Shown: positions 2,591-32,853, counted from the stretch's first letter. The stretch: 64,000 nt of DNA from Croceivirga sp. (GCA_050042945.1 JBHJJC010000064.1:4344-68343), one strand, 5' to 3'. Numbers and translations: made by a program. The notes: generated by a model not told the origin, from the letters alone.

Positions 2591-2636
2591 TTACTAAAGT
2601 TGAACAATATGAGTTTTAAATTGAAAAAATAGAAAA

Positions 2637-7530: not shown

Positions 7531-8052
7531 ATGACGATTTTTGTGGATATGGATGAGGTTATCGCGGATACCTATCAAGCTCATATCGATTATTACAATA
7601 CGAAATACGGCACAACCTTCGATAAGAACGATTGTGCAGGTAATGATTTTTGGAAGATGGTACCGGAAGCCCATCAAAATGAAATATGGCAGAATGCCCA
7701 TAGAACGAATTTTTTCAGGGACTTAAAAGTGATGCCCGATAGTCAGGAAGTATTGGAGGCCATGAGTAAGGTCCATAAGGTATACATTGCAAGTGCCGCA
7801 ATGCAGTTTCCTAATTCCTTACGAGAGAAGTCTGATTGGTTGGATGAGTATTTTCCATTTATACCATGGCAAAGGCGCATACTCTGTGGTCATAAGCATA
7901 TTTTGCGGGGTGATGTCTTAATTGATGACAGAAGCTATCATTTAGAAAGATTCACCGGAAGGGGCATTTTGTTCACCTCACCCCATAATACTGAGGAATT
8001 AAATTTTGAGCGCGTATCCTCATGGAAAGAAGTAGCTTCCTTATTTTTATAA
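7531..8052 (+). CDS. 5'(3')-deoxyribonucleotidase (HAD superfamily, NT5C-like)
   Basis: The HAD motif I is FVDMDEV, followed by IDD...SPHN. The track start at 7525 is a TTG; the ATG at 7531 (MTIFVDMDEV) is more likely. The last 56 nt lie inside the left direct repeat. Confidence 0.8.
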   Translation: MTIFVDMDEVIADTYQAHIDYYNTKYGTTFDKNDCAGNDFWKMVPEAHQNEIWQNAHRTNFFRDLKVMPDSQEVLEAMSKVHKVYIASAAMQFPNSLREKSDWLDEYFPFIPWQRRILCGHKHILRGDVLIDDRSYHLERFTGRGILFTSPHNTEELNFERVSSWKEVASLFL

Positions 8053-10838: not shown

Positions 10839-10884
10839 ATTAATCCCTATAGGATTTTTTATTTTAGGATAAATTAACTTTATT

Positions 10885-17800: not shown

Positions 17801-19752
17801 ATGGGCACACCCTTGGGTTTTCCAGAACTCCCTGAGGTATAGATGACGTAAGCCAAATGATCTGGCGTAGTTTCGGGGAAAACAACATTGGAATCCGTAC
17901 TGGATGGGGGTATCATGGAAATGTACGCTACCGTATTCGTATTAAAGCGCGATTCATACCCTTCTTCCGTAAGCACAAAATTCACTTCAGCATCTTTTAG
18001 CATATAAGCAATACGGTGCTTGGGGTATTCTGGATCTAAAGGCAAATAAGCGGCTCCAGCTTTTAGTATTGCCAATAATCCAATAACCAAGTCTACCGAA
18101 CGGTCCAAACATAGACCAACGATCTGATTTTCACCCTTGGTTTTTTGAACGATTTTAGTTGCAATAGCTGTTGATCTGTCCAGTAAATCTTGGTAGGTAA
18201 TGGAGGTAGGGCCACAGCTGACCGCCACCTTACTTGGAAACTGAACCGCTATATTATTGATGATCTCATGGATAGCAAAATTTCCTTCATATGCCCAGTT
18301 ATTAGCAGTAACAATTTCTTTTTTGCTAACATCATCGATTTTAAACAATGACGGCGGTCGCACTTCAATTTGGGAAATGTCAACCTGCTGGTCTATAATT
18401 ACCCTTTCAAGTACGGCTTTCAACTGCTCTTGAAATGAAAGGATGGAGTGTTCTTCAAATAAATCTGACATGTACTCTATGGTAGAGGAAATCTGTCCAT
18501 CTTCTTCCGCTATATAAAGGGTTAGGTCAAATTTGGCCACACCGACTTCCGAAGGATGATGCATGACCTTAAGATCTTCTGAAAAGAAAGGTTTTTCAGG
18601 AACTTTGTGATAAATGAACATTACTTGGAAAAATGGATTAATGTTCAGTTTTCGCTTTGGCATTAGTTCTTTGACCAAGATGTTAAAAGGTACATCCTTA
18701 TTTGCAAAAGCCTCTAGCACGACTTCTTTTACTCGGGTTACCAATCGGTCAAAGTTCATTGCCTCTTCAAGTTCGGTCTGAAGTACAATGGTGTCATTAA
18801 AAAACCCCATCAACCCCTCCAATTCCTTTGCATTTCTATTGGCTACAGGGGAACCTACGGCAATAGTCGTTTGTTTGCTTAACTTATGTAAGAGGATGTA
18901 ATATGCTGTCAACATAATTACGTAGGGTGTGGCCTGCATCTTTTTCGCGAGGGCAAGAATATCTTGGGAGAAATCCCATGAATATTTCTGGGTTTGCAGA
19001 CTTCCCCTATACGAAAGGGTAGTGGGTCTTAAGAAATCATGGGGTAATAGCAGGGATTGAACATTTCCTGCTAACCTCTTTTTCCAAAAATCGAGCTGCG
19101 CAATGGGAACTCCGATTTTTTTTTGATGGTAGGCATAATCCACATATTGTATTGATGGCCTCAACTTACTAAGCGGTTTATTGGAACTTAGTTCACTATA
19201 ATATTTGGCCAGATGTTTACGGAAGACCATCATGGACCATTTATCGGTTATGATGTGATTGAGCGTCAAGAAAAGGCGATGTTCATTATGAGAACATTTT
19301 ACTAAAGAGAATTTATACAAAGGGCCTTTTTCCAAAGAAAACGATGTGGATGCATCCTTTAACCCGATGCTTTCAATTTGATGCTCTAAATCTTTTCCTC
19401 TGAGGTTGCTAATATCATGAATAGTCAAATTCAGGGTAAGTGATTCATTAAGTGTCTGTATGATTTCCCCATCTTTTCCAGGGATATAGATGCTTCTAAG
19501 AACATCAAAATCCTTTAGAACATACTCTAATGCCTTTTCAAAAGAGGCGCTGTCCAGTTTCCCTTCAAAATTATAGCATTCACAATAATTGTAAAATGGG
19601 TTGTCAGGATGTAGTTTTTGCAAAAACCATAGCTGCTCTTGCCCATAGGATAGGGGAGCCAATAGCGCTTTGGGCATTTTTCGAATAGCAGCGAAACCAC
19701 TATTGCCGCCAACCTTGTCCCTTCTTTTCCATTGCTCTAGTAAAGATGCCAT
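14857..19752 (-). CDS. NRPS module C-A-T-T-E (tandem carrier domains followed by epimerase)
   Basis: The C domain has the variant core TLNHIITDKWS (19234-19260). The A cores are LAYVIYTSGSSGKPKG, NEYGPTE, YRTGD, GRSDDQVKIRGHRIE, PNGKVDK. T1 is FFEMGGDSILSIQ (Ser1048) and T2 is FFEIGGDSILSIQ (Ser1123). The E cores are PIQHWFF, HHLVIDAVSW, EGHGRE, GWFTSFFP, GIGYG, FNYLG. Confidence 0.92.
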   Translation of the reverse strand: MASLLEQWKRRDKVGGNSGFAAIRKMPKALLAPLSYGQEQLWFLQKLHPDNPFYNYCECYNFEGKLDSASFEKALEYVLKDFDVLRSIYIPGKDGEIIQTLNESLTLNLTIHDISNLRGKDLEHQIESIGLKDASTSFSLEKGPLYKFSLVKCSHNEHRLFLTLNHIITDKWSMMVFRKHLAKYYSELSSNKPLSKLRPSIQYVDYAYHQKKIGVPIAQLDFWKKRLAGNVQSLLLPHDFLRPTTLSYRGSLQTQKYSWDFSQDILALAKKMQATPYVIMLTAYYILLHKLSKQTTIAVGSPVANRNAKELEGLMGFFNDTIVLQTELEEAMNFDRLVTRVKEVVLEAFANKDVPFNILVKELMPKRKLNINPFFQVMFIYHKVPEKPFFSEDLKVMHHPSEVGVAKFDLTLYIAEEDGQISSTIEYMSDLFEEHSILSFQEQLKAVLERVIIDQQVDISQIEVRPPSLFKIDDVSKKEIVTANNWAYEGNFAIHEIINNIAVQFPSKVAVSCGPTSITYQDLLDRSTAIATKIVQKTKGENQIVGLCLDRSVDLVIGLLAILKAGAAYLPLDPEYPKHRIAYMLKDAEVNFVLTEEGYESRFNTNTVAYISMIPPSSTDSNVVFPETTPDHLAYVIYTSGSSGKPKGVPITHGNIVNSTRGRLDFYPNQPTAFLLLSSIAFDSSKAGLFWTLCSGGNLVVSEKRLEQDMQLLTETIRTHQVSHTLMLPTLYDVILDHAQVACLASLNTIIVAGEACTKHTAEKHFKVLPKTALYNEYGPTEATVWCMAHRVEPQDLERSIPIGKAVANAQILLLDEALNQVPEGETGELFIGGPGLSKAYINRPKLTKAAFIDHPFEKTGDAKLYRTGDFARQRKDGSFEFLGRSDDQVKIRGHRIELDEIENVLHAIKEVEQAVVLVVEEEATNRDADIYMIVSKVSKKLVAYVKLQTDEASVLKISSILKEQLPNYMVPSSIQIVGNIPVLPNGKVDKNTLRAMAPTPMGQVKTREENQSTFDSAEQQLVHLWEQVLDISPIGIDDNFFEMGGDSILSIQIISKARKLGLELSADQLFEHQTISELSRVITPNMGKRDAIETTLIQIWEEVLQTGPIGLNDNFFEIGGDSILSIQIISKARKQGIELTANHLFENQTIAELCVSIKKNPNIGEVETGIILGSVAMTPIQHWFFETHKNAPHFWNQGYRIIGLSSLKEKELLDIMSVLVKQHDALRSNFYKEQKKWKATIGQSKGINFLVYKNISDLDKQEQTKYLTKIIKDTQENLDLSKDTLFKCIYLYTGQSTAPICLLLGHHLVIDAVSWQIIIDDFIYLSEQINHSKILSLPKKTSSIQTWSNYMVNLDLEDELPFWKEHIKEVKSLPTDFIKKSDTIHESDIDSIDFRMDAEQTDILLNSANEAFGTKIVELLITGMLETLSKWSKIPEISIGIEGHGRETKGTDIDLSGTAGWFTSFFPVRFNGQNRGNRKSNIINIKETMRNIPRGGIGYGILRYIKNQLETVDYPQVTFNYLGSQMKVSSRGVELDFLLDNVRHPLSERTYMFEVNTWISEKGELNGRWSYSRVLHKHDTIKKLVDNLLGNLSSISSFCTNAQEKTYTPSDFPDAGLSQTELDDLLGSLE
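16273..16701 (-). repeat. tandem duplication encoding two consecutive carrier (T/PCP) domains
   Basis: The phosphopantetheine Ser codons are at 16609-16611 and 16384-16386, exactly 225 nt (75 codons) apart. The surrounding nucleotide strings are near-identical (ttttcttgcttttgagataatttgtatgctcaatat at 16348 and 16573). Confidence 0.9.
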
Positions 19753-19794: not shown

Positions 19795-21033
19795 TTACTT
19801 TAATCCTATAGCAACGGCTAATTTATACAGCCATCTTCTAATCTGATCTTCTACCCCAAGATTAACATCAAAAATTCGTTCAACCATCCAATACGCAGAA
19901 ATTATAATGAGTAGAATACAACCGTAAAAGAAGATTCCCTTGTAAATTTTCTTTTTTCTTAAAAAGAATAAAATAGGGAAAATTCCAGCTATAATAAGAA
20001 CTTGGCCAATTTCAACGCCAATGTTAAAACCAAAAAGAGAATACGTTAGAAAGGTATTCGTTAACCCCAAATCTCCCAAAACACTTGCAAAACCAAAACC
20101 GTGGAATAGTCCAAAGATAAAGGCAATGATCCAGTCCCTTCCTTTGAAAATCGGAATGATATTGTGAAATGCTGCTAGGCCTATGGAAAAAGCTATAATA
20201 GATTCTACCACCCTACTTGGTAAGGTAACGATTTCCAAAGCGGCCAATGACAACGTAATGGTGTGGGCAATAGTGAAGAAGGTAACAATCTTCAAAATAT
20301 ACATAAACGCAGGTTTGAACTTTAGGACCGGATACCATCCAAAAAAGTTACTATTGGTCAATTTAACAGTCGCTTCCTCTTTTCTATACAGTACGGAAGG
20401 TAATATCAAGGCGATTAGAAATAAAATGTGATCAAGTCCAATCCAAATATGCCACACACCTTGTTTTACCATTCCTAAAAAACCTTTCCAAATGGACATA
20501 TCATCTAGAAAAAGGGTGTCTTTAGTTTCTTCTGGAGAAAAATAAAGGGAAATAATGGCTTCGTTATTGACCACACCATCTCTCCAATTTTGCTCTACAA
20601 CCAGAAAACCACGGTGCGTGTCATCAGCCTCAAAAGCTGGATTAAAGAATACATCAATCGATTCTGGGATATCTTTGGAATTCTCCAAATAAAAATAAAG
20701 CTTCACATAGTTTCCATAGTCGATTTCGCGCATTTCAACTTCCTTATAAACAAGTTCATATTGTTGTCCATTGGAAGACAGCGAGGAATGCTCGAGCAGG
20801 TATTTTTTTATTGCAGCAATATGGGGTTGTACTTCATCATATGTTGCATCTTTGGGTAGGTTGAGATTAAAGACTTTGTTAATTTCATTGATATTGAATT
20901 CAAAGCGTCCATGAATGCCATCTTCTTCATAAATATTCAGAAAAATGTAACTACTGTTAATTGCATGGGCGGAAGCAAAAAAAGGTGCCATCAAGGCAAT
21001 TAAAAAAAGTATTTTGAAAAAAGTTTTTTTCAT
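19795..21033 (-). CDS. HupE/UreJ-family membrane protein with large N-terminal extracytoplasmic domain
   Basis: The ATG at 21033 gives the signal peptide MKKTFFKILFLIALMAPFFASA. The C-terminal half is polytopic and carries the family motif GLDHILFLIAL. The gene is first in the minus-strand operon, 42 nt upstream of the C-A-T-T-E gene. Confidence 0.65.
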   Translation of the reverse strand: MKKTFFKILFLIALMAPFFASAHAINSSYIFLNIYEEDGIHGRFEFNINEINKVFNLNLPKDATYDEVQPHIAAIKKYLLEHSSLSSNGQQYELVYKEVEMREIDYGNYVKLYFYLENSKDIPESIDVFFNPAFEADDTHRGFLVVEQNWRDGVVNNEAIISLYFSPEETKDTLFLDDMSIWKGFLGMVKQGVWHIWIGLDHILFLIALILPSVLYRKEEATVKLTNSNFFGWYPVLKFKPAFMYILKIVTFFTIAHTITLSLAALEIVTLPSRVVESIIAFSIGLAAFHNIIPIFKGRDWIIAFIFGLFHGFGFASVLGDLGLTNTFLTYSLFGFNIGVEIGQVLIIAGIFPILFFLRKKKIYKGIFFYGCILLIIISAYWMVERIFDVNLGVEDQIRRWLYKLAVAIGLK

Positions 21034-21462
21034 TTTAATCTCGATTTTCTTGTCTGTTAGACAACAAAAGAACATAACCAGGGGCATTAGTCAAAACGAA
21101 ACTCGTTAAGACCAAACATTAAACGCTAAAGTGGAATATTTGCATTTTAATGGGAACTTTAAAAGTAGTATGCTCTGGTTGGTTATTTTTGAAGTAACAA
21201 TATTCACTACTAAAAAAATTGTTTTATCAATATTAACCCCAATTAATTGTTATTTTTCGATGAATTTCACTTAATCAAGATAACTTTCGCAAGGGTAGAC
21301 GATAAAATTTCTGAAATTATGGAATTCAAGGTGCCTAAACAACCTGAATTTTTCTGCTTTAACTTTAAAATTCCCACTTCAACGAACTTTTTAAAACATC
21401 TACAGGAATATGCGGTTCTTTTGTAATATCCATTCTACCGTTTCATTAAATTTAAAGTGCAT

Positions 21463-22614
21463 ATGGATTTTTCTATTCCACGAGAACTTTTAGACTACAA
21501 AAAGAGCGTTGTAGAGTTTGCCCAATCCAATTTGAATTCCTCTTTTGTGGAAGATGACAAAGCATGCAGGTTCAATCGGAAGGATTGGAACAAATGTGCT
21601 TTTTTCGGCATTCAAGGATTGGCCGCTCCCAAGAACTTCAATAAAGACAACGCGGACATAGATATGGTCAGGGCCACATTAGCTATGGAAGGCTTAGGAT
21701 ATGGCTACAAGGACAACGGCTTACCCCTTGCACTCAGTGCACAAATGTGGACGGTTCAATTACCACTTGTGGATTTTGGTACGGAAGCACAGAAGAACGC
21801 CTATTTGCCCAATTTGGTATCAGGAAATTGGATAGCCTCACACGCCCTTACGGAACCGCATGCGGGTTCGGATGTATTCAGCATGCAAACTATGGCCGAG
21901 AAGGTAACGGGAGGATACGTGCTCAATGGAAAAAAATGCTTGATAAGTCTAGCCCCAATATCCGATGTTTTTCTTGTTTTTGCCAATACCAATCCAAAAT
22001 TGGGCAAATGGGGAATTACGGCATTTTTAGTGGAAAGGGGAACCAAAGGATTTACCACATCACCAAATAAAGAAAAAATGGGCCTGCGCACCGTCCCCAT
22101 TGGGGATATGGTATTCAAAGACTGTTTTGTGCCTGCATCCAGCGTTCTGGGTAAAGAAGGAGCAGGGATGTCCATTGCCAATCACTCCCTGGAATATGAC
22201 AGATGTAGTATCCTTGCTTGCCAACTTGGGGCCATGGAAAGACAGCTGGAAGAAACGATACAATTTGCGAAAACTAGAAAACAATTTGGAAAAAGCATTG
22301 GGAATTTTCAGGCGGTGTCCCATAGAATTGCCGATATGAAATTGCGATTGGAAACCTCTAGGTTACTCTTGTATAAAGTAGCGTGGTTAAAGAGTAAGGG
22401 CAAATCCGCAATGATGGAAGCTGCGCTCCTAAAACTACAATTAAGCGAATGTTTTGTGGCATCAAGTTTGGATGCGGTTCGTACCCATGGAGGGGCTGGA
22501 TATTTAACAGAAAATGAAGTGGAACGTAATTTGCGCGATGCCGTAGGCGGTCTTATTTACGCGGGAACCTCTGATATCCAACGGAATATTATTGCAAGTC
22601 TGTTGGGCGTTTAA
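21463..22614 (+). CDS. acyl-CoA dehydrogenase-fold flavoprotein (probable acyl/aminoacyl-carrier-protein dehydrogenase)
   Basis: The ACAD fold is visible throughout (ASHALTEPHAGSD, GWGITAF, FGKSIGNFQAV, GGAGY). The MCAD-type catalytic Glu is replaced (LIYAGTSDIQ). I prefer the ATG at 21463 over the GTG at 21457. Confidence 0.8.
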   Translation: MDFSIPRELLDYKKSVVEFAQSNLNSSFVEDDKACRFNRKDWNKCAFFGIQGLAAPKNFNKDNADIDMVRATLAMEGLGYGYKDNGLPLALSAQMWTVQLPLVDFGTEAQKNAYLPNLVSGNWIASHALTEPHAGSDVFSMQTMAEKVTGGYVLNGKKCLISLAPISDVFLVFANTNPKLGKWGITAFLVERGTKGFTTSPNKEKMGLRTVPIGDMVFKDCFVPASSVLGKEGAGMSIANHSLEYDRCSILACQLGAMERQLEETIQFAKTRKQFGKSIGNFQAVSHRIADMKLRLETSRLLLYKVAWLKSKGKSAMMEAALLKLQLSECFVASSLDAVRTHGGAGYLTENEVERNLRDAVGGLIYAGTSDIQRNIIASLLGV

Positions 22615-22627
22615 ACCAAGTGTTGCT

Positions 22628-24202
22628 ATGATCTTTTCCTTAGTAGATATCGTATCCCTTAATTCCCGAAAATTCCCCGGGAAGGATGCTTTTCGATTCC
22701 TATCTAGTGCCCTAACCCATTCAGAACTGGAAGAGAAGTCCAATAAACTGGCCAAACATTTAAAAGATAAGGGGGTAAAACGCGGTTTCAGGGTTGGCAT
22801 CTATATGAATCGTTGTTTGGAATCTGCCATTGCGGTTTATGGTATTCTAAAAGCTGGAGGATGCTATGTGCCTTTAGATCCCGCTGCTCCAATAGAAAGG
22901 TCACGTTTTGTTTTGAAAGATTGCAACATTAAGCATCTTGTCACCACCAAAAACCAAAGCAGGAAAATAAAAAAACTCCTAGCCACAACTACCGAAGTTG
23001 ATTGTCTTATCGGCTGTGAACTAGAGGATATGCCCTGGAGTTTTTCATGGGAGGATATTTTCAAACTATCCTTAAAAGACTATCTTGCTTTGCAAATCAT
23101 GGAACAGGATTTAGCCTATATTTTGTACACTTCGGGAAGCACAGGAACGCCAAAGGGTATCATGCATACCCATTATAGTGCATTAAATTATGCCAAATTG
23201 GTAGTAGATCAATACCAATTTGATACGAGTGACGTTTTGGGGTCCACCGCCCCCCTTCATTTTGACATGTCGACTTTTGGTTACTTTGCGGCTCCTTTGG
23301 CCGGAGCAACCTGCACCCTTATTTCAGATATGCACCTAAAAATGCCGACTAGTTTGGTTGATTTCTTGAAAAAATCCAAAATAACGGCATGGTATTCTGT
23401 TCCGTTGATTTTGATACAACTCCTACAAACGGGATTGTTGAAAAATGAGGATTTTGATACCTTGAAATGGGTGTTGTTTGCCGGGGAGGTCTTTCCAACA
23501 AAACATCTTCGAAGCCTAATGGGTATTTGGAAAGGAAAAACCTTCGGCAATGTTTATGGCCCTACGGAAGTAAATCAATGTACTTTTTATAATTTAAGGA
23601 CAGCTCCAAAATCAGATGCGCCCATACCCATCGGAAGAGTTTGGAAAAATACGGAATACAAAATATTGGATGAAAATGACAAAGAAGTGAGCGAGGGTCA
23701 GCCCGGGCTTTTGGTTATAAGGTCTGGCACCATGATGAAGGGCTATTGGAACAATCCCGAACTGACCAAGGCTTTGTTATATCAAGAGACTATTGTTCCC
23801 GGTGCGAATGCCGTGTATTACAGAACTGGAGATTTGGTACAATTAAACACACAAGGTGAGCTCTTGTTTTTAGGCAGGAAAGATCGCCAAATTAAGATTC
23901 GGGGATTTCGGATTGAAATCGACGAGGTTGAAAACACCTTGTTAAGAATAGCAGATGTGGCCGAAGTAGCTGTAGTTGTTAACCAAAATAATGATGAAAA
24001 AGTATTGATGGCCACGGTCTTGCCAAGAGACAATAGGGCCCTAGACGTTGGAGAAATATATTTGTTTTGCAAACTACACTTGCCTCCCTATGCCGTTCCA
24101 GAGCAGATTGAAATCTGGAAGGAGTTTCCAAGAACAGGAACTGGGAAAATTGATCGAAAAGCCATTGCGCATAAATTAACCTTTAGTAAGTATGAACGAT
24201 AA
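22628..24202 (+). CDS. free-standing adenylation enzyme (NRPS A-domain / DltA-like)
   Basis: LAYILYTSGSTGTPKG, FAGEVFP, VYGPTE, YRTGD, GRKDRQIKIRGFRIE and GTGKIDRK are present. The ATG at 22628 (MIFSLVDIV) lies 13 nt after the ACAD stop. Confidence 0.88.
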   Translation: MIFSLVDIVSLNSRKFPGKDAFRFLSSALTHSELEEKSNKLAKHLKDKGVKRGFRVGIYMNRCLESAIAVYGILKAGGCYVPLDPAAPIERSRFVLKDCNIKHLVTTKNQSRKIKKLLATTTEVDCLIGCELEDMPWSFSWEDIFKLSLKDYLALQIMEQDLAYILYTSGSTGTPKGIMHTHYSALNYAKLVVDQYQFDTSDVLGSTAPLHFDMSTFGYFAAPLAGATCTLISDMHLKMPTSLVDFLKKSKITAWYSVPLILIQLLQTGLLKNEDFDTLKWVLFAGEVFPTKHLRSLMGIWKGKTFGNVYGPTEVNQCTFYNLRTAPKSDAPIPIGRVWKNTEYKILDENDKEVSEGQPGLLVIRSGTMMKGYWNNPELTKALLYQETIVPGANAVYYRTGDLVQLNTQGELLFLGRKDRQIKIRGFRIEIDEVENTLLRIADVAEVAVVVNQNNDEKVLMATVLPRDNRALDVGEIYLFCKLHLPPYAVPEQIEIWKEFPRTGTGKIDRKAIAHKLTFSKYER

Positions 24203-24428
24203 AATAATAGCGTATATAACGGATAACCTGCTGTATGAGCAATTGGACGACCCATTAACGGCAGATGAAAACCTACTGGAGAGTGGTTTGATAGACTCTT
24301 TGGGAATCATGAAATTAGTGGTATTTATTGAAAGTGAATTTGAAGTAGCCATACCTCCTGAAGATATGACTATTGAGAATTTTATGACAGTCAATCATAT
24401 CAAAGAATATCTGATGTTAGGGAAGTAG
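24192..24428 (+). CDS. stand-alone carrier protein (ACP/PCP)
   Basis: 78 aa with LLESGLIDSLGIMKLV; Ser36 is at 24297-24299. The start overlaps the A-gene stop by 11 nt. Confidence 0.85.
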   Translation: MNDKIIAYITDNLLYEQLDDPLTADENLLESGLIDSLGIMKLVVFIESEFEVAIPPEDMTIENFMTVNHIKEYLMLGK

Positions 24429-24489
24429 AATTTCTTTGTTAACTATCAAAAAACAACTTCAATTTTTTAGCCAAATATTTCTTCTATCA

Positions 24490-25566
24490 ATGAGGTTTAT
24501 AAAATTAGACGGTTTGCGCGGTATTTTTAGTTTAATGATAGTATTATATCATTACCTCCAGGAGTTTTTACCTATATATTTTTATCGTTTTTTTATTATC
24601 CGAGAATCATATGCATTTGTGGATTTCTTTTTTGTTTTGAGTGGTTTTGTAATTTCACATAATTACAATCAGATAGGGTCAAGGGAACAGTTTTTTACAT
24701 ATGTTAAAAAAAGATTCATTAGGCTGTACCCTTTGCTTTTTTATACTGTAATGATTTATTTTTTGTTTAGATTACTGGCATTAAACCTATTTCCTGATGT
24801 AATAGATTCGAGTGTGTCCTTTGATGCAATGCTAATCAAAACTTTGGACGCTCTACTTTTCACTAACTCAACGGTTATTTTAGGGGGAGAAAACGGTGGT
24901 ATGAATTCTCCTTCTTGGTCAATATCTGCCGAAATGATTACCTATATTCTATTTGGTTTGGTTGTTGGACTAACAGGAGAAAAAAAAATAGTTAAGTCAG
25001 TAATTTTTGGTTTGGTAATAGGTTTTGCCAGTATTATTTTGATTTATGAAGGTAGTTTATTTAAAATGTCAGACTATGGATATTTAAGAAGCTTTATCTC
25101 TTTTTTAATGGGTTACTTTGTATGGAAATTAAATCCTAAAAAAATAAAAATCAAGAAGAATCTTGAGCTTTTGTTCCCTTTAATTATTATACTCATGCTT
25201 TATTTTTTGCATAACTATAAGAATACAGATTTAAAATTCTATTTTGAATTTTTGGTTCCCCCTGTATTTGCTATGTTTATCTATTTTTTATTGGTGTCCA
25301 AAGGGTTGTTGACCTCTATGTTGGAAAGTAAACCAATTCAATACTTAGGAAAGATATCGTATTCTATTTATTTGAATCATTTTCTCATATTGATGATTCT
25401 ACCCAAAGCGTCTTTTATATTGTTAAAATTGGAAAATAGTAATGCAAACCAACTTTTAATACTAATTTTCACAATGATTCTGATAATAATATATTCTCAT
25501 GTAACGCATCAAATTATTGAGCTGAGAGGAGGCCGGTTTTTAAAAAGAATATTATTGAAATCATAA
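24490..25566 (+). CDS. acyltransferase family 3 (integral-membrane O-acyltransferase)
   Basis: MRFIKLDGLRGIFSLMIVLYH is followed by about 10 hydrophobic helices, and SWSISAEM is present. I prefer the ATG at 24490 over the TTG at 24436. Confidence 0.8.
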   Translation: MRFIKLDGLRGIFSLMIVLYHYLQEFLPIYFYRFFIIRESYAFVDFFFVLSGFVISHNYNQIGSREQFFTYVKKRFIRLYPLLFYTVMIYFLFRLLALNLFPDVIDSSVSFDAMLIKTLDALLFTNSTVILGGENGGMNSPSWSISAEMITYILFGLVVGLTGEKKIVKSVIFGLVIGFASIILIYEGSLFKMSDYGYLRSFISFLMGYFVWKLNPKKIKIKKNLELLFPLIIILMLYFLHNYKNTDLKFYFEFLVPPVFAMFIYFLLVSKGLLTSMLESKPIQYLGKISYSIYLNHFLILMILPKASFILLKLENSNANQLLILIFTMILIIIYSHVTHQIIELRGGRFLKRILLKS

Positions 25567-25586
25567 AGAGGAGGAACGATTCTATA

Positions 25587-28500
25587 CTAACCTTCTTCCA
25601 TCAAACGAATTAATATACTTTCCACATATTTCCCATATGTCTTGGCTGTAGGATACTTAAAAATATCTGCAAGTGTTAAAACATTTAATTCAAAAGATTC
25701 CTTTAACCTTGATGTAATAACCATGGCATTCAGGGAGTTACCTCCAATTTGAATGAAGTCATCGTCAATGCTTATTTGAGCTACTTTAAGGACCTCTTTC
25801 CAAACTTCTACAATGATTTCCTCAAATTCGTTGCTGGGTCCCATATAGGTTCTTTTATCTTCTAGGGCCTGGAGAGTAATATTTGGAAGCTTTTTTCTAT
25901 TGATTTTTCCACTTGAAAGAAATTCAAAAGTATCTAAATGAACATAATAGGAGGGCACCATATATTTGGGTAAATATATTTCAAGAGCAATTCTTAAATC
26001 ACGTTCCTCAATTGTGTTTCCACTATAATAGGAAGCTAAATATTCTTGTTCGTTTTGATGAATGACCTTAACCACTGCTTGATTAACGCCCGGATAGCTT
26101 TCTAACGACTTTTCAATTTCGCCAAGCTCTATGCGTAACCCTCTTAATTTGATTTGGGTATCAGTCCTTCCCATGTATTCAATAGCACCATCCATTCGAT
26201 ATCTAGCCAAATCACCAGTTTTGTACAATTTCGAATCAGAATTATTAGAAAATGAATCTTCTAAAAAACGCTTTCTGGTCAACTGATCTTTGTTCAGATA
26301 CCCATGGGCCACTTGAACTCCGGCAATATAAAGTTCACCCACAACTCCAATAGGAACAGGATTTAGGTCGTGGTCCAGAATATATATTTTGGTATTAGCA
26401 ACGGGATGACCAATGGGTACGCCATTTAAATAATCCCCTTTTTTACAATGCCAGCTCGTTACATCAACTGATGCTTCTGTGGGGCCGTAAAGATTGTACA
26501 ATTCAGCATAAAGTTTCTCATGGGTATTTTTAACTGTGCTCATTGCCAAGGCTTCTCCACTACAGAATATTCTTTTCAAACTTGCACCTCGGTATTCTAC
26601 ATCCCTTGTACTAATAAATATATTTAGCATAGATGGCACGAAATGTATAATGTTAACATTATGGGTAGCTATAGCACTAAGAAGGCTATCTTGATCCAAG
26701 TGTTCACCAGGTTGCGCAATGACCAATTTGGCCCCGACTTGCAAAGGCCAAAAAAGCTCCCATACCGAAACATCAAAAGTAAACGGTGTTTTCTGCAGAA
26801 AAACGGTTTTTTCAGTAACTGGATAATCGTTGTTCATCCAATTCAATCGGTTACAGATTCCCTTGTGATGGCATATAACCCCTTTTGGTTCCCCAGTGCT
26901 TCCTGAGGTGTAAATAACATATGCCATATCATCCGGCTGAACATTTACTCTAGGTTGTGTTTCAGGGAAGGTTTCTAAAGTATCCGTCAGAGAACGAATG
27001 TTATAGGAGCTTGTAATTCCCGTATCCATATTATTCCAATCTGTATTGTGATGGAAAAAGACTTTGGCTTGGGAATTTTTTAAGATGTATTCTGCCCTTT
27101 TCTTAGGTGTTGCAGTGTCCAAGGGCAAATAGGCCGCTCCTGCTTTCAAGATACCGTATAAAAAAAACATCATCTCAAAAGATCTGTCCAAGCAGAGCGC
27201 AACAATGTGGTTTTGCCCAACACCTTGCTGTTTTAGAAAATGGGCTACCTGATTTGTTTTCTTGCTAAATGAAAGATAACTCATGGACATCTCACCAAAA
27301 ACAAGGGCTGTATTTTTAGGATTCTCAAGAACCTGCGCTTCAAATTTATCAAGCAAGGTTTCACCAGATTCATAAACTACGGTTGTATTGTTCCAAGTTG
27401 CTATTTTTTTAATTTCTTGAGGCGTTATTATCGATACATCTTGTATTTTTTGATTTTTATTGGCTACGAATGCATCCAGTATTGCCATAAAATGTTGGCC
27501 AATGGAATCATACTGCTCTTTAGAAAAAATGGCATTGTTCAGATCAAATTGAAGTTGGTAATCTCCTTCGTTATTGAAATCATGTACTTGAAGTCGAATA
27601 TGGTGGTTGGAATCAATATGATCGGCCAACAACCAATTACATTTGGTGGGGATTCCTGCAAAATCATGGTAGATCGCAGGAATAAAATTGAAGAGCACAT
27701 TATACGTTTTCATCAATTCTATTGGCGCTCGGGAAATCATGGCATTCTTTAGAACGTCCAAGGACTCCCGTTGTATTTTTTTAAAGATGTCTATAAAACT
27801 ATCTTCGGTATTTATAGCTATATTCAAGGGCAGCAACTCCATAAAAAGCCCGATTGTCTTTTTATCTTTTGGACTACTTCTATTATGATTAGCCATCCCA
27901 ATGGAAAACTTCTCTAGATTACCAATCTTATAAATCAACGTGCAGATGACCGTTAAAAAAATGTTGGATAGCGCTAATTCCATCGTGAGTCCTTTGATAT
28001 CCTTTTCGTAAGAAAATGCTTTTAATTTTTCAGTTCTATCCTTTCCTAATTTAAAATTAACCCTTGTCGAGTCTGTTTTTACTTGATTCCGCTTTACCCC
28101 ATATAGCTGGGGTTTTTCAAGCGTATTTCTAAGTTTTGCTTTCCAATATGGAGAATTCTCCAATTCATGTTGGAATGGATTCTTATTGGCATATGCTTCA
28201 AATGTCAAAAATTCATTTTCATCGGTAGTCACCTCGCCAATGGCATTTATATAATATCTCTCCAGTTGATCATAAAGCAGCTTTACGCTCCAACCGTCTG
28301 TAATCAAATGATGCTGATTCAAATAGAAAACGAATTGATTTTCGCCTAATTTGAAGAGGACTGCACGATATAAAAGGGTACTTAAATCAAAAGGTATTTT
28401 TTTATCCCCATTTAACCATTCTCTACAAGCGAGTTTTGGTTTTTTTTTATCTACAAAATCCAAGAACTGTAATGGACTTTCTACTTTTTCCTTAAATACT

Positions 28501-28715
28501 TGAATGGGTATATCCTCCTCAATTGCTATATACAGTCTTAGCGAATCGTTAGAATCAACAAGCCTTTGAAAAGCCAATTTAAAACAGCCAACATCAATTT
28601 TCCCCTTAATTTCAAAAGTGAGGGGCATATTGTACATCGGGTTATTGGAATCTATTTCCTGCCCCATCCAAATCATCATTTGGCTGTGGGTCATTGGAGC
28701 TGTCTTCATGGTCAT
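25587..28715 (-). CDS. NRPS module C-A-T (A-domain code reads as serine)
   Basis: The C core QHHLITDGWS is at 28287-28313. The A cores are MAYVIYTSGSTGEPKG, NLYGPTE, YKTGD, GRTDTQIKLRGLRIE, SSGKINRK. The T motif is FIQIGGNSLNAM, with Ser995 at 25734-25736. My hand-extracted specificity residues are D-V-W-H-F-S-L-V-D-K. The track start at 28718 is a TTG; there is an ATG at 28715. Confidence 0.92.
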   Translation of the reverse strand: MTMKTAPMTHSQMMIWMGQEIDSNNPMYNMPLTFEIKGKIDVGCFKLAFQRLVDSNDSLRLYIAIEEDIPIQVFKEKVESPLQFLDFVDKKKPKLACREWLNGDKKIPFDLSTLLYRAVLFKLGENQFVFYLNQHHLITDGWSVKLLYDQLERYYINAIGEVTTDENEFLTFEAYANKNPFQHELENSPYWKAKLRNTLEKPQLYGVKRNQVKTDSTRVNFKLGKDRTEKLKAFSYEKDIKGLTMELALSNIFLTVICTLIYKIGNLEKFSIGMANHNRSSPKDKKTIGLFMELLPLNIAINTEDSFIDIFKKIQRESLDVLKNAMISRAPIELMKTYNVLFNFIPAIYHDFAGIPTKCNWLLADHIDSNHHIRLQVHDFNNEGDYQLQFDLNNAIFSKEQYDSIGQHFMAILDAFVANKNQKIQDVSIITPQEIKKIATWNNTTVVYESGETLLDKFEAQVLENPKNTALVFGEMSMSYLSFSKKTNQVAHFLKQQGVGQNHIVALCLDRSFEMMFFLYGILKAGAAYLPLDTATPKKRAEYILKNSQAKVFFHHNTDWNNMDTGITSSYNIRSLTDTLETFPETQPRVNVQPDDMAYVIYTSGSTGEPKGVICHHKGICNRLNWMNNDYPVTEKTVFLQKTPFTFDVSVWELFWPLQVGAKLVIAQPGEHLDQDSLLSAIATHNVNIIHFVPSMLNIFISTRDVEYRGASLKRIFCSGEALAMSTVKNTHEKLYAELYNLYGPTEASVDVTSWHCKKGDYLNGVPIGHPVANTKIYILDHDLNPVPIGVVGELYIAGVQVAHGYLNKDQLTRKRFLEDSFSNNSDSKLYKTGDLARYRMDGAIEYMGRTDTQIKLRGLRIELGEIEKSLESYPGVNQAVVKVIHQNEQEYLASYYSGNTIEERDLRIALEIYLPKYMVPSYYVHLDTFEFLSSGKINRKKLPNITLQALEDKRTYMGPSNEFEEIIVEVWKEVLKVAQISIDDDFIQIGGNSLNAMVITSRLKESFELNVLTLADIFKYPTAKTYGKYVESILIRLMEEG

Positions 28716-29007
28716 CAAAAAAATTAATACTATCGTAACACCCGAAGACCTTATGCCTTTGCAATGTGTTCTTCTGTGTTTTTAAATGTAGCGCTAATTT
28801 CCATAATCTTTACTGATAAGAACCAACGCCAATTAAAATTTCATTAAAACAATGGCTTCTAACTATAGAATGTCCCTCTCAACCCCCATATTTCCCACTT
28901 AACAGGTTTTTTTTGGGTTGGCACCTTAAAAACTTTTGATTTAACCTTTGTTTATGTAATAAACCATAAGCAATATAGGATTGTTGGGTTCCATGCATTA
29001 GAGTTAA

Positions 29008-29481
29008 GTGAAACGTAAAAAGAATAATAAAAATAAGTCTTTTATCCTTGTCTTTATGACTGTGGGAGTGAGCACCCTTTATGTTCTTGCCCCCCTACAC
29101 GAAGAAATTCGGGAGGTTGGCCATAACATCGCACATTATATTGAAGCACCCATTTCTTTTTTGGAGCACACTACCTATAGGAGTACGGAATTTCACACAG
29201 CACACGAACATATAGAAGCTGATCATGGGCATGAACACCTTTTCATTGACTTTTTAGGCGCCTTTTTGGAAAAGTCTTCATCGGAAAAAAGTCCAATGAA
29301 AAATTCTTCTTTAAAGTTGAAAGTAGATAAACACATTATTTCTGAACAAAAGTTTAAAAGGTATGTTGACGTTACTTGTGCTCCTGCCGTAACGATATGG
29401 AAATATATAATAGAGGTGTTACTAGGCTATCGCACCATAATTTATGTGCCTCCCCAAAACATTGATACCTGTAATGTGTAA
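29008..29481 (+). CDS. small membrane-anchored histidine-rich protein
   Basis: GTG start, then a Lys-rich N-terminus and one hydrophobic helix. There are 10 His in residues 31-77 (...HNIAHYIEAPISFLEHTTYRSTEFHTAHEHIEADHGHEH). An alternative ATG lies at 29056. I recognised no family. Confidence 0.5.
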   Translation: MKRKKNNKNKSFILVFMTVGVSTLYVLAPLHEEIREVGHNIAHYIEAPISFLEHTTYRSTEFHTAHEHIEADHGHEHLFIDFLGAFLEKSSSEKSPMKNSSLKLKVDKHIISEQKFKRYVDVTCAPAVTIWKYIIEVLLGYRTIIYVPPQNIDTCNV

Positions 29482-29628
29482 TGCTTAATCCAAATAGGAT
29501 TAGGTACGAAAAGTTGGGCAAGTTCATGCCCAACCATAATTCCATAAACAATACAAAAGCAGCACTTCTTATTGGAAGGGCATCACTTTTATTTGCTTGA
29601 CCAGAAGGTTGCCATTAAATAACAAATA

Positions 29629-31866
29629 ATGAAAAATTATATTTATATTCTCTACTTATTTTTTGTAATTGGAACAATACATGCGCACGATTTAAAAGGA
29701 ACTATTGTGGATGAATCAGGAGTTCCTGTTGAAGGAGTATCCATTGTTAACCAAACCACTAGGGGTTACACCTTCTCAAACGTCTCTGGTTATTTTGAAC
29801 TCGACGACATTTCTATTGGGGATGAAGTCGTTATAAATAGTCTAGGCTTTAGAACCCAACGGTTAACAATCGTTGAAAGTCAATTGGACGCGACCATCAA
29901 AATTATTTTGTTGGGGGAAGCAGTATCGTTAAATCAAGTTACGCTCCTTTCCAAAACAAATCCATTGACAGAATTAGCTAATGTCGATGTTCAAATAAAT
30001 CCGGTAAAATCTTCACAAGAGATTATGCGCAAAGTACCAGGACTTATTATTGGTCAACATGCCGGTGGTGGAAAAGCAGAACAGATTTTTTTAAGGGGTT
30101 TTGATATTGACCATGGTACCGATATTGCGATCAATGTAGACGGATTACCAGTAAATTTACCTTCACACGCACATGGTCAAGGTTATTCTGACCTACATTT
30201 TCTAATACCGGAAATCATTGATAACATCGATTTTGGAAAAGGGCTATATTACGCCGATAAAGGAAATTTTAATACAGCTGGTTATCTTGATTTGAACATT
30301 AAGGATAAGATTGACAACAGTTCCATTGTTGTTGAAGCAGGTCAGTTCAACACGTTGAGGGCAGTTGGTCTTTTAAAAGTGTCTGAAGGGGAATACAGCA
30401 ATGCCTATATTGCCTCTGAAGCTGTTCTGACCGATGGGGTCTTTGATGCTTCACAAAATTTTAACCGGTTGAACATTCTTGGCCGTTATAACTACAATAA
30501 CTATGAAGATGAGCAACTGACCCTTTCTATTTCACATTTTCAAAGTCGTTGGGATGCTTCGGGGCAAATTCCTCAGCGAGCGGTGGACCAAGGTTTGATT
30601 TCGCGATTTGGTGCTATTGATAGCACAGAAGGGGGTAATACAAGCCGTTCTAACATCTGGTTAAAACATATGAAACAGCTGGACGAACATCAACGTATTC
30701 GTACGAACGCTTATTTATCAAAATACGATTTTGAATTGTTTTCAAACTTTACCTTTTTCCTGAACAACCCGGTTGACGGAGATCAAATACAACAGGTAGA
30801 GAGTCGGACCATTATAGGTGCCGAAACCGCTTATGATGTGAATTTCCACACCGATAACCATAATGAGCAATTAAGTTTGACCTCTGGATTGGGCTTTCGA
30901 TATGACGATGTTGACAACAATCAACTATCCCGAACCAGAAACCGAACAGAAATTTTAGAACGGTTGGCCTTTGGTGATGTAGACGAACTGAACGGTTACG
31001 CCTACTCTAGTTTGACCTACAAAACCAAGAATTGGACATTTATTCCTGGTGTTCGTTTAGACTATTTTAGCTTTGGATATAATGATTTCCTTCAACCGAC
31101 CTTCTCTAGTTTACGGGAAAATGATGTTATTGTAAGTCCAAAATTCAATGCCATTTATAGCCCAGGTGAGAACTTCCAAATATATGGCAAAGCCGGATTT
31201 GGTTTCCACTCTAATGATAGCAGGGTTGTCAACGCCCAGAATGCTACCGAAGAAACGTTACCTTCTGCCTTTGGTGCTGATATCGGTACGGTGTTCAAAC
31301 CTTTATCAAACTTAATTATCAATGCTGCTCTATGGGGGCTGAGTCTAGAGCAGGAATTTGTATATGTTGGTGATGAGGCTGTGGTGGAACCCAGTGGAAG
31401 GTCAAGGAGATATGGTGTTGATTTCGGTCTGAGATATCAATTGACCGATTGGTTGTTTGCAAATGCCGATGTTAATTACACCTTAGCCAGAAGTATTGAC
31501 GAAGCCGATGGGGAAGATTTTATCCCATTAGCTCCTGATTTTACATCTGCCGGTGGTCTTACAGTGCGTAACTTGGGTAAATTTTTAGGGAGTCTAAATT
31601 ACCGCTATGTAGATGACAGGCCCGCAAATGAGAATAATTCAATTGTTGCAATTGGCTATTTTGTTACGGATATGAACATTAACTACAACTTCAATAAAAA
31701 TTGGTCGTTTGGTCTTATTGTTGAAAACCTGTTTGATACCGAATGGAATGAAACCCAATTTGCTACAGAGACAAGACTCTTTAATGAAGTGAATCCAATA
31801 GAAGAAATAACATTTACTCCAGGGACGCCCTTTTTCCTTAGGGGGCGTTTAACGGTAAGCTTTTAA
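29629..31866 (+). CDS. TonB-dependent outer-membrane receptor with CarboxypepD_reg-like N-domain
   Basis: Signal peptide, then GTIVDESGVPVEGVSIVN...SNVSGYFEL (Bacteroidota-type N-domain). The plug region reads IFLRGFD, followed by a long beta-barrel that ends in a terminal Phe (RLTVSF). Confidence 0.88.
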   Translation: MKNYIYILYLFFVIGTIHAHDLKGTIVDESGVPVEGVSIVNQTTRGYTFSNVSGYFELDDISIGDEVVINSLGFRTQRLTIVESQLDATIKIILLGEAVSLNQVTLLSKTNPLTELANVDVQINPVKSSQEIMRKVPGLIIGQHAGGGKAEQIFLRGFDIDHGTDIAINVDGLPVNLPSHAHGQGYSDLHFLIPEIIDNIDFGKGLYYADKGNFNTAGYLDLNIKDKIDNSSIVVEAGQFNTLRAVGLLKVSEGEYSNAYIASEAVLTDGVFDASQNFNRLNILGRYNYNNYEDEQLTLSISHFQSRWDASGQIPQRAVDQGLISRFGAIDSTEGGNTSRSNIWLKHMKQLDEHQRIRTNAYLSKYDFELFSNFTFFLNNPVDGDQIQQVESRTIIGAETAYDVNFHTDNHNEQLSLTSGLGFRYDDVDNNQLSRTRNRTEILERLAFGDVDELNGYAYSSLTYKTKNWTFIPGVRLDYFSFGYNDFLQPTFSSLRENDVIVSPKFNAIYSPGENFQIYGKAGFGFHSNDSRVVNAQNATEETLPSAFGADIGTVFKPLSNLIINAALWGLSLEQEFVYVGDEAVVEPSGRSRRYGVDFGLRYQLTDWLFANADVNYTLARSIDEADGEDFIPLAPDFTSAGGLTVRNLGKFLGSLNYRYVDDRPANENNSIVAIGYFVTDMNINYNFNKNWSFGLIVENLFDTEWNETQFATETRLFNEVNPIEEITFTPGTPFFLRGRLTVSF

Positions 31867-31923
31867 ATGAATTAGTGCATTACATTCTACCTAAGAAAAG
31901 ATAGGTGGTATTTTAGATTACTG

Positions 31924-32082: not shown

Positions 32083-32222
32083 AATTAAATTTTGAGCGCG
32101 TATCCTCATGGAAAGAAGTAGCTTCCTTATTTTTATAATATGCCCAGACCAATAGTCATTCTGTTTTTTTTGGTTTTAATGCAGTCGTGTGCATCACAGC
32201 ACAATTTGGTGGAAGGAAGGCA
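32083..32222 (+). repeat. right copy of 140-bp direct repeat bracketing the NRPS island
   Basis: See 7997..8136. This copy contains a start-less stub ending ...QLNFERVSSWKEVASLFL* (identical to the nucleotidase C-terminus) plus the genuine 5' end of the esterase gene. Confidence 0.95.
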
Positions 32223-32853
32223 ACAGGTCGAACTTTCGGAAAATTTGCAGTACTACCTATATCTGCCCGATAACTACTTTTCAGAAGAGAATAAAGATTT
32301 TGGATTACTGCTCTTTTTACATGGTGGAGGGGAATCGGGCCGTCAGCTCAATGAATTGACCAAGAACGGACCGCCTAAAATGATGGCAGATGGATATCCT
32401 TTTCCCTTCTTGGTATTGGCCCCCCAAAATCCGTATGAGAAACAATGGTGGGATGTAAGGGCGGTCAATCAGCTGTTGGATTACATCATAGACGATTACC
32501 GTGTGGATAAAAAACGAATTTACCTAACAGGATTGAGTAGGGGAGGAAGCGCTGCATGGGAAATGGCAGTTCAATATCCTGATAAATTTGCAGCATTGGC
32601 GGTTGTCTGCGGCATGGCACCATTACCGTACGCGCATTGGATGAACAAAGAAATGCCCATATGGGTATTTCATGGGGCAGAGGATAAGGTCATTCCCGTT
32701 TCAGAATCTGACCAAATGGTTTCGAAACTTACGGAAATTGGGTTTGATGTCCGTTATGACCGTTATGAAGGGGTAGGGCACAATTCTTGGGGTCGCGCTT
32801 ACGCCCTTGATAGCTTATATGCATGGTTTAACAAACAAAAATTGATAGAATAA
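32140..32853 (+). CDS. alpha/beta-hydrolase esterase (phospholipase/carboxylesterase-like) lipoprotein
   Basis: Lipobox LMQSC. The catalytic signatures are LLFLHGGGESG, the nucleophile elbow GLSRGGSAAW, VFHGAEDKVIP and GVGHNSW. Confidence 0.8.
   Translation: MPRPIVILFFLVLMQSCASQHNLVEGRQQVELSENLQYYLYLPDNYFSEENKDFGLLLFLHGGGESGRQLNELTKNGPPKMMADGYPFPFLVLAPQNPYEKQWWDVRAVNQLLDYIIDDYRVDKKRIYLTGLSRGGSAAWEMAVQYPDKFAALAVVCGMAPLPYAHWMNKEMPIWVFHGAEDKVIPVSESDQMVSKLTEIGFDVRYDRYEGVGHNSWGRAYALDSLYAWFNKQKLIE

Follow-up and report, generated by a model that had tools for sequence, protein, structure and literature searches.

The 64,000-nucleotide stretch of Croceivirga sp. DNA considered here (GCA_050042945.1 JBHJJC010000064.1:4344-68343), which we call the window in its full length, carries at positions 10083-31866 one coherent set of genes, as delimited by Pfam, NCBIfam and PDB sequence searches. 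In this set nonribosomal peptide synthetase (NRPS) genes are found together with a HupE/UreJ-family permease (HupE for short), a small membrane-anchored His-rich protein and a TonB-dependent outer-membrane receptor. An earlier note on this DNA had suggested that the product is a metallophore whose metal may not be iron; the linkage of the genes in relatives, a predicted histidine module, the domains of the permease and the lack of an iron signature now lend this suggestion support in silico. Below, L numbers denote related loci from genome and metagenome scans and look-ups, and synthetase domains are abbreviated as C (condensation), A (adenylation), T (carrier), E (epimerization) and TE (thioesterase). 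The features of the cluster, in order of position, are these:

10083-10892, minus strand: 4'-phosphopantetheinyl transferase (PPTase), last gene of the HupE-NRPS operon (Pfam ACPS and AASDHPPT_N)
10885-12225, minus strand: macrolide-type glycosyltransferase, tailoring (Pfam UDPGT/EryCIII-like_C, TIGR01426)
12364-14751, minus strand: NRPS C-T-TE, terminal module without an A domain (Pfam Condensation, PP-binding, Thioesterase; HHLLLDG motif)
14857-19752, minus strand: NRPS C-A(His)-T-T-E (Pfam domains, PDB matches; code DSALIAEVWK)
19795-21036, minus strand: HupE/UreJ-2 permease, first gene of the operon (PF13795; predicted signal peptide, N-terminal His1 and periplasmic beta-sandwich domain)
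21037-21456: divergent intergenic (promoter) region (one weak TCGA-centred motif copy at 21254-21264, minus strand)
21457-22614, plus strand: L-prolyl-carrier-protein dehydrogenase of PigA/RedW/AnaB type (NCBIfam PigA/RedW; PDB 4irn)
22592-24202, plus strand: stand-alone A enzyme, probably proline-specific (Pfam AMP-binding; PDB 6o6e)
24192-24428, plus strand: stand-alone peptidyl carrier protein (PCP; GLIDSLG motif, PF00550 E 4.3e-8)
24436-25566, plus strand: membrane acyltransferase (Acyl_transf_3), tailoring (Pfam E 1.3e-29)
25587-28718, minus strand: NRPS C-A(Ser)-T, first elongation module (Pfam domains; code DVWHFSLVDK)
29008-29481, plus strand: small membrane-anchored His-rich protein (10 His in 47 residues; no Pfam/NCBIfam match)
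29629-31866, plus strand: TonB-dependent outer-membrane receptor (Pfam CarboxypepD_reg (CarbopepD_reg_2), Plug, TonB barrel)
31887-31908, plus strand: terminator-like hairpin after the receptor gene (consensus scan only)

Read from its 5' end, the minus-strand operon consists of the genes for HupE, C-A-T-T-E, C-T-TE, the glycosyltransferase and the PPTase, and the plus-strand genes divergent from HupE encode the dehydrogenase, the A enzyme, the PCP and the acyltransferase. That a HupE/UreJ gene heads the synthetase operon had been stated in the earlier note and is borne out: the motif GLDHILFLIAL lies in the open reading frame (ORF) 19795-21087(-), and its stop codon is separated from the C-A-T-T-E start by the 42 nt given there, with no terminator-like hairpin between. 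The 10 His in 47 residues (29098-29238) were likewise recovered, within ORF 29008-29481(+), and the next ORF, 29629-31866(+), has the CarboxypepD_reg, Plug and barrel domains of the TonB-dependent receptor that was said to follow. Two entries of that first inventory had to be revised. The gene at 21457-22614, labelled acyl-CoA dehydrogenase, is a prolyl-carrier-protein dehydrogenase according to NCBIfam and PDB 4irn, and the stand-alone PCP gene at 24192-24428 had been overlooked.

Conservation and rearrangement of the cluster

When genomes were scanned with the HupE protein, 22 Bacteroidota loci were obtained. HupE-NRPS pairs were found in Maribacter, Flaviramulus, Algibacter, Hyunsoonleella, Hwangdonia, Kriegella, Arenibacter, Pseudozobellia, Gelatiniphilus and Aureicoccus, and the same scan gave Flavobacteriaceae metagenome-assembled genomes and one such Cyclobacteriaceae genome; Winogradskyella, Leptobacterium and a second Maribacter came from look-ups, for a total of more than 12 Flavobacteriaceae genera. 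Wherever the flanks were usable, an NRPS gene stood directly behind HupE, and the first NRPS module, the His-rich gene and the receptor lay on the other side. With a HupE alignment as query, metagenomes were scanned as well, and homologues as distant as 28% identity were sampled; the two sources were pooled for linkage counts, for which a match had to be full-length and have 3 kb or more of flank (some loci, such as L011/L012, are near-duplicates). The earlier note had asked whether the HupE-like gene is also conserved at this position where NRPS genes are lacking. NRPS or prolyl-dehydrogenase genes were present at 29/29 loci with HupE identity of at least 50% and at 9/10 with 40-50%, which makes 38/39 linked at 40% or above; they accompanied 5 of the 12 HupE genes at 35-40% and none of the five below 35%, the NRPS linkage being gone below about 37%. 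The linkage of HupE to the NRPS genes is thus not a matter of chance. Moreover, in the group with 37-46% HupE identity the order is HupE, dehydrogenase, A enzyme, NRPS, and therefore the association survives rearrangement. With 1,015 clusters at 50% identity (E<=1e-30), the two-domain HupE family as a whole is much larger, and the NRPS-linked clade makes up only the uppermost part of it.

The usual arrangement consists of two divergent operons. One runs from the dehydrogenase, which the ornithine cyclodeaminase gene may precede, through the A enzyme, PCP, C-A-T and the His-rich gene to the receptor; the other begins with HupE and continues with C-A(His)-T and further synthetase domains, a glycosyltransferase in some cases, and the PPTase. 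In this layout, therefore, an NRPS gene is normally followed directly, on its own strand, by the His-rich gene and the receptor. Compared with most relatives, the window has its C-A-T gene inverted and an acyltransferase gene inserted, a layout that it shares with Maribacter sp. 2210JD10-5 (L108). The earlier note was right that the His-rich gene diverges from the C-A-T gene, but this divergence is the product of the local inversion. The PPTase occupies the same end of the cluster in every related locus with sufficient flank, and the PCP the same position in L025, L026, L107 and L108; in relatives the A enzyme is always paired with the dehydrogenase and the PCP. The glycosyltransferase occurs only in some relatives (37-63% identity in L003, L004, L009, L011, L012, L015, L018, L029 and L107) and the acyltransferase in few.

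Identities to the closest relative, L107, are very uneven. They reach 89% for the receptor, 94% for the dehydrogenase, 92% for the A enzyme and 88% for HupE, and drop to 31% for the C-A-T module, which is Asn-coded there and Ser-coded in the window. The cluster is thus a mosaic of stable transport and pyrrole genes and of a residue-2 module and tailoring genes that are subject to exchange. Against L108, which has the Ser-type C-A-T, the values are 52% for that module, 51% for the acyltransferase, 84% for the receptor and only 59% for HupE. In general, the receptor (62-89%) and HupE are far better kept than the synthetases (30-48%), whether residue 2 is Ser or Asn.

Such frequent swapping of the residue-2 module and the tailoring genes is also what is seen in competitive secondary metabolism, and the peptide might be an antibiotic, a signal or a protease inhibitor with which the metal-uptake genes travel along or for which they supply a needed metal. 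Short NRPS products that contain pyrrole or His can indeed have other bioactivities, and the promoter scans described below lend no support to metal regulation. We nonetheless regard this explanation as unlikely. The linkage persists through many rearrangements and over a wide divergence, HupE opens the synthetase operon, with a 42-nt gap and no terminator behind it, the His-rich gene and the receptor stand directly behind an NRPS gene in relatives, and histidine is the one building block that would be invariant.

Several loci carry additional genes. In the divergent clade L021, L031, L032 and L041 an ATP-binding cassette (ABC) exporter (ABC_membrane plus ABC_tran) directly precedes HupE. In L002, L025 and L026 the His module is split because a PF27704 methyltransferase of 261-266 aa (L002:14135-14926, L025:14212-15012, L026:14258-15043) sits between the C-A(His) gene and the T-C gene, and in several loci of this type a conserved membrane protein of about 540 aa without a Pfam match is encoded between the dehydrogenase and the cyclodeaminase genes. 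The cluster is flanked in the window by housekeeping or regulatory genes unrelated to it. Three genes at 32140-34488 on the receptor strand, for an esterase, an S51 peptidase and an M15 D-Ala-D-Ala-type dipeptidase, were considered as members and set aside as probably unrelated, since they were never found beside the cluster in related loci; a GNAT-like gene (9057-10073) recurs only in L107 (45% identity, beyond the PPTase), which was too little to include it.

The predicted peptide

Specificity codes of the A domains (Stachelhaus codes) were read from alignments in which the A domain of the window served as reference, with positions fixed from the FDxS, GGE, NxYGPTE and GK motifs. The domain behind HupE reads DSALIAEVWK in the window, and DSxL[IMV]AEVW(K) recurs in every complete copy: in the window and in 31 others (20 from genome loci, 10 from metagenome loci, and that of L107). 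DSALIAEVWK is listed among the His signatures, and it also occurs in beta-OH-His modules (PMC12283262). By this code, the NRPS gene behind HupE is predicted always to activate histidine, the sole invariant building block. The partner module is more variable. Its code is DVWHFSLVDK or DVWHFSLIDK in the window, L003, L005, L021, L022 and L108, which we take to be the classic Ser code; in most of the others it is the Asn-type code DLTKIGEVGK or a close variant (DLSKIGEVG, DLTVIGEVG), and L025 differs with DITIIIFIGK. A code of the DLTKIGEVGK type is mentioned in the Asp/Asn section of the same source (PMC12283262).

The C-A(His)-T-T-E protein contains the carrier motif GGDSI twice and an HHLVIDA motif of the E type, and its first condensation domain reads NHIITDK (residues ~160-172) in place of the canonical HHxxxDG. 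In the terminal C-T-TE module the TE has CFSTG, not GxSxG. In most Asn-type relatives the Asn-coded A domain, that of the first NRPS module, contains an insert of about 400 aa between the A core and the A sub-domain (L010:5271-9422, L026:1-3927); the insert gives a weak QueC match (PP-loop or nitrile-synthase type) and may be an embedded amide-modifying domain, converting, for instance, Asn to beta-cyanoalanine.

The starter unit would come from the plus-strand genes. The dehydrogenase matches NCBIfam PigA (E 2.7e-116, 388.8 bits against a cut-off of 500) and RedW (E 2.1e-110, 369.1 against 650), both sub-equivalog, and its top PDB match is the prolyl-ACP dehydrogenase 4irn (E 3.7e-116). From these scores it is predicted to work like PigA/RedW but is not an equivalog, and its A and PCP partners are present. 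The top PDB matches of the A enzyme include PltF (6o6e, L-proline-[carrier protein] ligase; E 1.4e-71). The predicted functions of the trio match the known route from proline to a pyrrol(in)e-2-carboxyl group, a starter that appears optional across relatives, some of which add the ornithine cyclodeaminase as proline supply. Adenylation enzyme, free carrier and FAD dehydrogenase are likewise combined in PltF/PltL/PltE, PigI/PigG/PigA and AnaC/AnaD/AnaB; here, in contrast, the unit would prime a two- or three-module NRPS ending in His, not a polyketide or prodiginine pathway. The oxidation would end at pyrroline, as with AnaB, or at pyrrole, and we accordingly write pyrrol(in)e.

If the module order follows the canonical gene order, which is assumed here, the minimal product, that of L107, would be pyrrol(in)e-2-carbonyl-Asn-His, released by the TE and probably glycosylated. 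On the same assumption, the window's product would be pyrrol(in)e-2-carbonyl-Ser-(D-)His plus an addition by the A-less C-T-TE module, and it may be O-acylated and glycosylated.

Permease, His-rich protein and receptor

The translation start of the permease is almost certainly the ATG at 21036 (MKKTFFK...), because the same start is found in 25 homologues; the protein would then have 413 aa and the intergenic region would be 21037-21456. As to its family, the HupE/UreJ membership given in the earlier note holds for PF13795, HupE_UreJ_2 (E 2.7e-44, 151 bits against a cut-off of 24.5, residues 207-379), but not for the canonical hydrogenase/urease-type family PF04955, PF13795 being the only one of the two reported for the window protein. 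The N-terminal domain has a weak match to DUF6702 (E 0.0028). Directly after the predicted cleavage site there is always a His (the window reads FASA|HA; 25 homologues from databases and 20 genome loci read A/S/G-H), the site being deduced from the sequence and not by a dedicated predictor. H141, H196, D202, H203, H258, H291, H312 and E342 are invariant in the 25 homologues, and in the membrane domain the motifs WH-x5-DH, AHTIT, HN, FHGFGF and GVE-GQ do not vary.

In the AlphaFold2 (AF2) model (mean confidence score, pLDDT, 75) the N-terminal domain is a beta-sandwich, with strands at 28-176 and a pLDDT of 80-92; the membrane part has about six helices (182-388) plus one C-terminal helix. In Foldseek searches only ZrgA (Zn-bound 8f1b and apo 8ezw) and the Cu-bound Ang-1 structure 9gce matched the N-domain at E<=0.001; the best structural match was ZrgA 8f1b (E 1.3e-4), and RbAng-1a 9gce scored E 5.9e-4 with probability 1.00 and a TM-score (target) of 0.57. 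At the sequence level nothing in the PDB was significant for HupE, and the similarity to Ang was undetectable. Fold model and motifs together lead us to predict an N-terminal metal-binding domain of the His-brace type.

Relatives of this domain have been studied. In a 2025 "signal-strapping" paper, domains of Ang-1 and Ang-2 type with an N-terminal His, fused to PF13795 permeases, bound Cu at 62-74 nM, Ang-1 additionally bound Ni, and the related, mostly Bacteroidota DUF6702 bound Ni with pM affinity; the Ang domain was proposed to "fish" ions into the permease (PMC12537917). The window protein shares the signal peptide, the mature N-terminal His, the beta-sandwich, the linker and the PF13795 membrane domain of these anglerase-HupE/UreJ-2 proteins, whereas it belongs to a Bacteroidota clade, is only 13% identical to Ang-1 in the structural alignment, and stands in an NRPS operon with a TonB receptor. 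Ang-1 was reported only from Pseudomonadota and Ang-2 only from Actinomycetota, with DUF4198, indigoidine-A-like proteins, kinases and metallophosphatases as neighbours and no NRPS neighbourhood (PMC12537917).

Among the scanned window ORFs (204-8052 and 9057-37449) there were no hyp, hup or ure genes. Canonical HupE/UreJ proteins (PF04955) are nickel permeases, in cyanobacteria cobalt permeases, of hydrogenase and urease clusters. Like them, the window protein is a small permease with H-x5-DH in the first helix, FHG, a signal peptide and a mature N-terminal His, the motif comparison resting on what we take to be the R. leguminosarum HupE sequence; it differs in its extra 170-aa periplasmic domain and in having no hydrogenase or urease genes nearby in the scanned ORFs.

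HupE homologues of 30-38% identity without NRPS genes (L059, L062, L065, L067, L069-L071 and L073, e.g. L062:6706-9065) follow a co-oriented, abutting ORF of about 375-430 aa, which encodes a tetratricopeptide repeat (TPR) protein in the 4/4 loci scanned (L062, L067, L070, L073); the TPR protein and HupE look like a two-gene operon. These contexts, the TPR-protein pair and also conjugative elements, gave no clue to the metal.

A dedicated exporter is missing from the window and HupE always heads the synthetase operon, so one may ask whether the HupE-like protein exports or imports the peptide or its complex, and not a bare ion. We think this very improbable. Its membrane domain keeps the His, Asp and Glu residues that typify HupE/UreJ proteins conducting ions, its modelled helices are those of a small permease, the variants that have an ABC exporter retain HupE, and those relatives that have been characterised are permeases for metals.

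The His-rich gene probably starts with the GTG at 29008, because only then does the protein have the basic N-terminus and full transmembrane helix of its orthologues. These were found in 14 genome loci, with an overall identity of only 20-29%, and H23, H27, H38, H61, H93, DKH and PP are invariant in the 14 sequences (numbering from ATG 29056). They keep the basic N-terminus, the single transmembrane helix, HxH before a short helix, DKH and the C-terminal PP, a pattern that recurs in database homologues; from this alignment, the positions of the His residues are specific beyond chance. The AF2 model is mostly disordered (pLDDT 48.8), and neither Pfam nor NCBIfam gave a match. A profile search of 5.8 billion proteins yielded at least 14 members, a lower bound since the search was word-limited; all are unnamed and without a Pfam domain, and the named genera among them are cluster carriers. 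The protein thus appears to represent a new family, found only in these clusters. The divergent clade is without the His-rich gene, and its receptors have in their N-terminal domain an H-x-H-T-N cluster (L021:6040-8319, L031:3600-5807, L032:3523-5739, L041:3468-5723) that is absent from the window receptor; the loss of the one and the gain of the other suggest that both elements serve the same job.

The TonB-dependent receptor is conserved within the cluster in relatives and is, with its 59-89% identity, the best conserved cluster protein overall. As its identity does not track the change between Ser and Asn, it would recognise a feature common to the products. Its best matches are siderophore-type models and Fiu, all of them weak (in the PDB only Fiu and BtuB), and source annotations call its orthologues "Fe transport". 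The cluster might then be that of an ordinary iron siderophore, with a peptide that binds Fe(III) or Fe(II) and a HupE that is incidental or moves Fe(II); the occurrence of DSALIAEVWK in beta-OH-His modules also fits this, as does a PhyH-family Fe(II)/2-oxoglutarate dioxygenase gene immediately upstream of HupE in two relatives (L005:9111-9899, L108:562-1344). We consider it distinctly improbable. Pfam and NCBIfam scans of the cluster genes found no chelator genes of the catechol, hydroxamate, salicylate, beta-OH-Asp/His, graminine or carboxylate type, the window has neither hydroxylase nor Fur box, and scans of it found no siderophore-type ABC importer or reductase. The receptor scores 56.5 bits where the TIGR01783 cut-off is 223.5, the predicted nitrogen donors suit Fe(III) poorly, and the HupE family and the relatives of its N-domain bind Ni, Co, Cu or Zn.

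Proposed role and metal

Taken together, the gene content and its conservation lead us to favour, on balance, the view that 10083-31866 is a biosynthesis and transport unit for a short, secreted His-peptide which serves to scavenge a non-iron divalent transition metal. To the nickel, cobalt and zinc named in the earlier note copper should be added; Cu(II) or Ni(II) is most likely, and Zn or Co is possible. The donors of pyrrole-2-carbonyl-Ser-His (the residue-1 N, two amide N and the imidazole of His3) would, by analogy, reproduce the Xaa-Xaa-His geometry of the amino-terminal Cu- and Ni-binding (ATCUN) motif, which favours Cu(II) and Ni(II). This pattern, taken with the preference of Ang-1 and DUF6702 for Cu/Ni and with the association of HupE/UreJ proteins with Ni/Co, makes Cu(II) and Ni(II) our leading candidates, and the similarity to ZrgA, with the His-rich segments, keeps Zn in play.

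The pathway could run as follows. Proline would be loaded on the free PCP and oxidised to the pyrrol(in)e-2-carboxyl starter, which would be elongated by C-A(Ser)-T, then by C-A(His)-T-T-E and finally by C-T-TE, and the peptide would be secreted. Outside the cell it would chelate a divalent metal, and the complex would re-enter through the cluster's own TonB-dependent receptor. In the periplasm, the metal would be handed to the His-rich anchor protein, to the N-terminal His1 (His-brace) domain of HupE or to both, and the bare ion would cross the inner membrane through the HupE/UreJ-2 channel. Export of a metallophore is in keeping with the ABC exporter that some variants carry before HupE. The full version of this scheme, with ATCUN-like pyrrole-2-carbonyl-X-His metallophores for Cu(II)/Ni(II) as a class produced by marine Flavobacteriaceae, periplasmic stripping and entry of the bare ion through HupE, we put forward as a possible but tentative proposal.

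Several observations weigh against a role in the scavenging of a non-iron metal. L043, with a HupE homologue of 43% identity, has no NRPS gene within 2-3 kb on its short contig. The PhyH enzyme could make beta-hydroxy residues in the relatives that carry it and hence confer iron affinity. The fold matches of the HupE N-domain are modest (TM-scores of 0.54-0.58, about 0.55), the receptor falls below the cut-off of every NCBIfam receptor class, and a Pfam scan of the cluster ORFs found no exporter gene in the window. The ATCUN argument hangs on the assumed module order and is not directly valid for pyrrole-less variants. Regulation by metal likewise finds little in the promoters. The earlier note had seen no Fur box by eye, and consensus scans for Fur and Zur agree, with no match of up to 3 mismatches in 21037-21456 or 28719-29007, the consensus not being specific to Bacteroidota. 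Riboswitch searches gave no Rfam match, either in the whole window at the gathering threshold or in 20900-29700 at E<=1.

Across the window, counts of the Fur and Zur consensus are at or below the shuffle expectation; a single Zur-like match with 3 mismatches lies at 29610-29624, just 5' of the receptor gene. In 20 orthologous upstream regions no k-mer was enriched above shuffles. A weak TCGA-centred, roughly palindromic motif (tTtnATCGAnaAa) occurs 90-230 nt upstream of the HupE start in about 16/20 loci. By expectation-maximization its log-likelihood ratio is 186 against 157-163 for shuffles when unconstrained and 156 against 138-141 when palindromic, that is about 15-25 nats above; its exact core is found three times in the window where 1.4 are expected, and is not enriched. 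We know of no regulator that it matches. Scans for sigma-70 promoters are uninformative for Bacteroidota.

Known metallophore systems share part of this plan. Staphylopine and pseudopaline (Cnt), yersiniabactin (Zn/Cu/Ni) and methanobactin with MbnT likewise combine a dedicated chelator cluster with a TonB re-uptake receptor, and the opine metallophores have nitrogen donors derived from histidine. The chelators themselves are different, opine, thiazoline or ribosomally synthesized peptide there and a predicted NRPS pyrrolyl-X-His peptide here, and so is the last step, which relies on ABC or major facilitator superfamily importers of the complex in those systems, whereas the present cluster has an ion permease with a predicted His-brace and a His-rich anchor; the cluster showed no homology to proteins of the Cnt or Mbn systems. 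The ZrgABCDE system of Vibrio cholerae (PMC9820375) resembles the cluster in the fold of ZrgA, in the small single-helix membrane protein ZrgD and in its flexible His-rich segments. There, however, ZrgA occurs free in the periplasm and supplies an ABC transporter, its sequence identity to the HupE N-domain is only 11-15% over the structural alignment, and Zrg has neither NRPS nor receptor.

In the papers searched, a large survey of Flavobacteriaceae biosynthetic gene clusters and the genome-mining paper on NRP metallophores among them, this combination of genes is not described. It brings together a short NRPS with a His code, a leading ion permease with a predicted His-brace, a new His-rich family and a dedicated receptor. 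The antiSMASH rule for NRP metallophores looks for recognised chelating-group genes and for transporter genes within the cluster (PMC12971057); by Pfam and NCBIfam the present cluster has the TonB receptor but none of the chelator genes. Lacking such a gene, it would be missed by current genome-mining rules.

Few non-iron metallophores are known, and to our knowledge none comes from Bacteroidota. Maribacter, Winogradskyella, Algibacter, Arenibacter and Hyunsoonleella include cultured carriers of the cluster, among them Maribacter sp. 2210JD10-5, Winogradskyella sp. R77965, Algibacter luteus and Hyunsoonleella jejuensis, and therefore the hypothesis is directly testable. If it is true, these clusters would be a widespread candidate source of strong Cu/Ni-binding organic ligands in coastal seawater, and the new His-rich family and the receptor subfamily would gain a predicted substrate. 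The anglerase-HupE/UreJ-2 permeases, for their part, would be given a physiological context as the inner-membrane end of a metallophore pathway, one whose route of metal hand-over, with stripping in the periplasm and entry of the bare ion, would be new for any metallophore.

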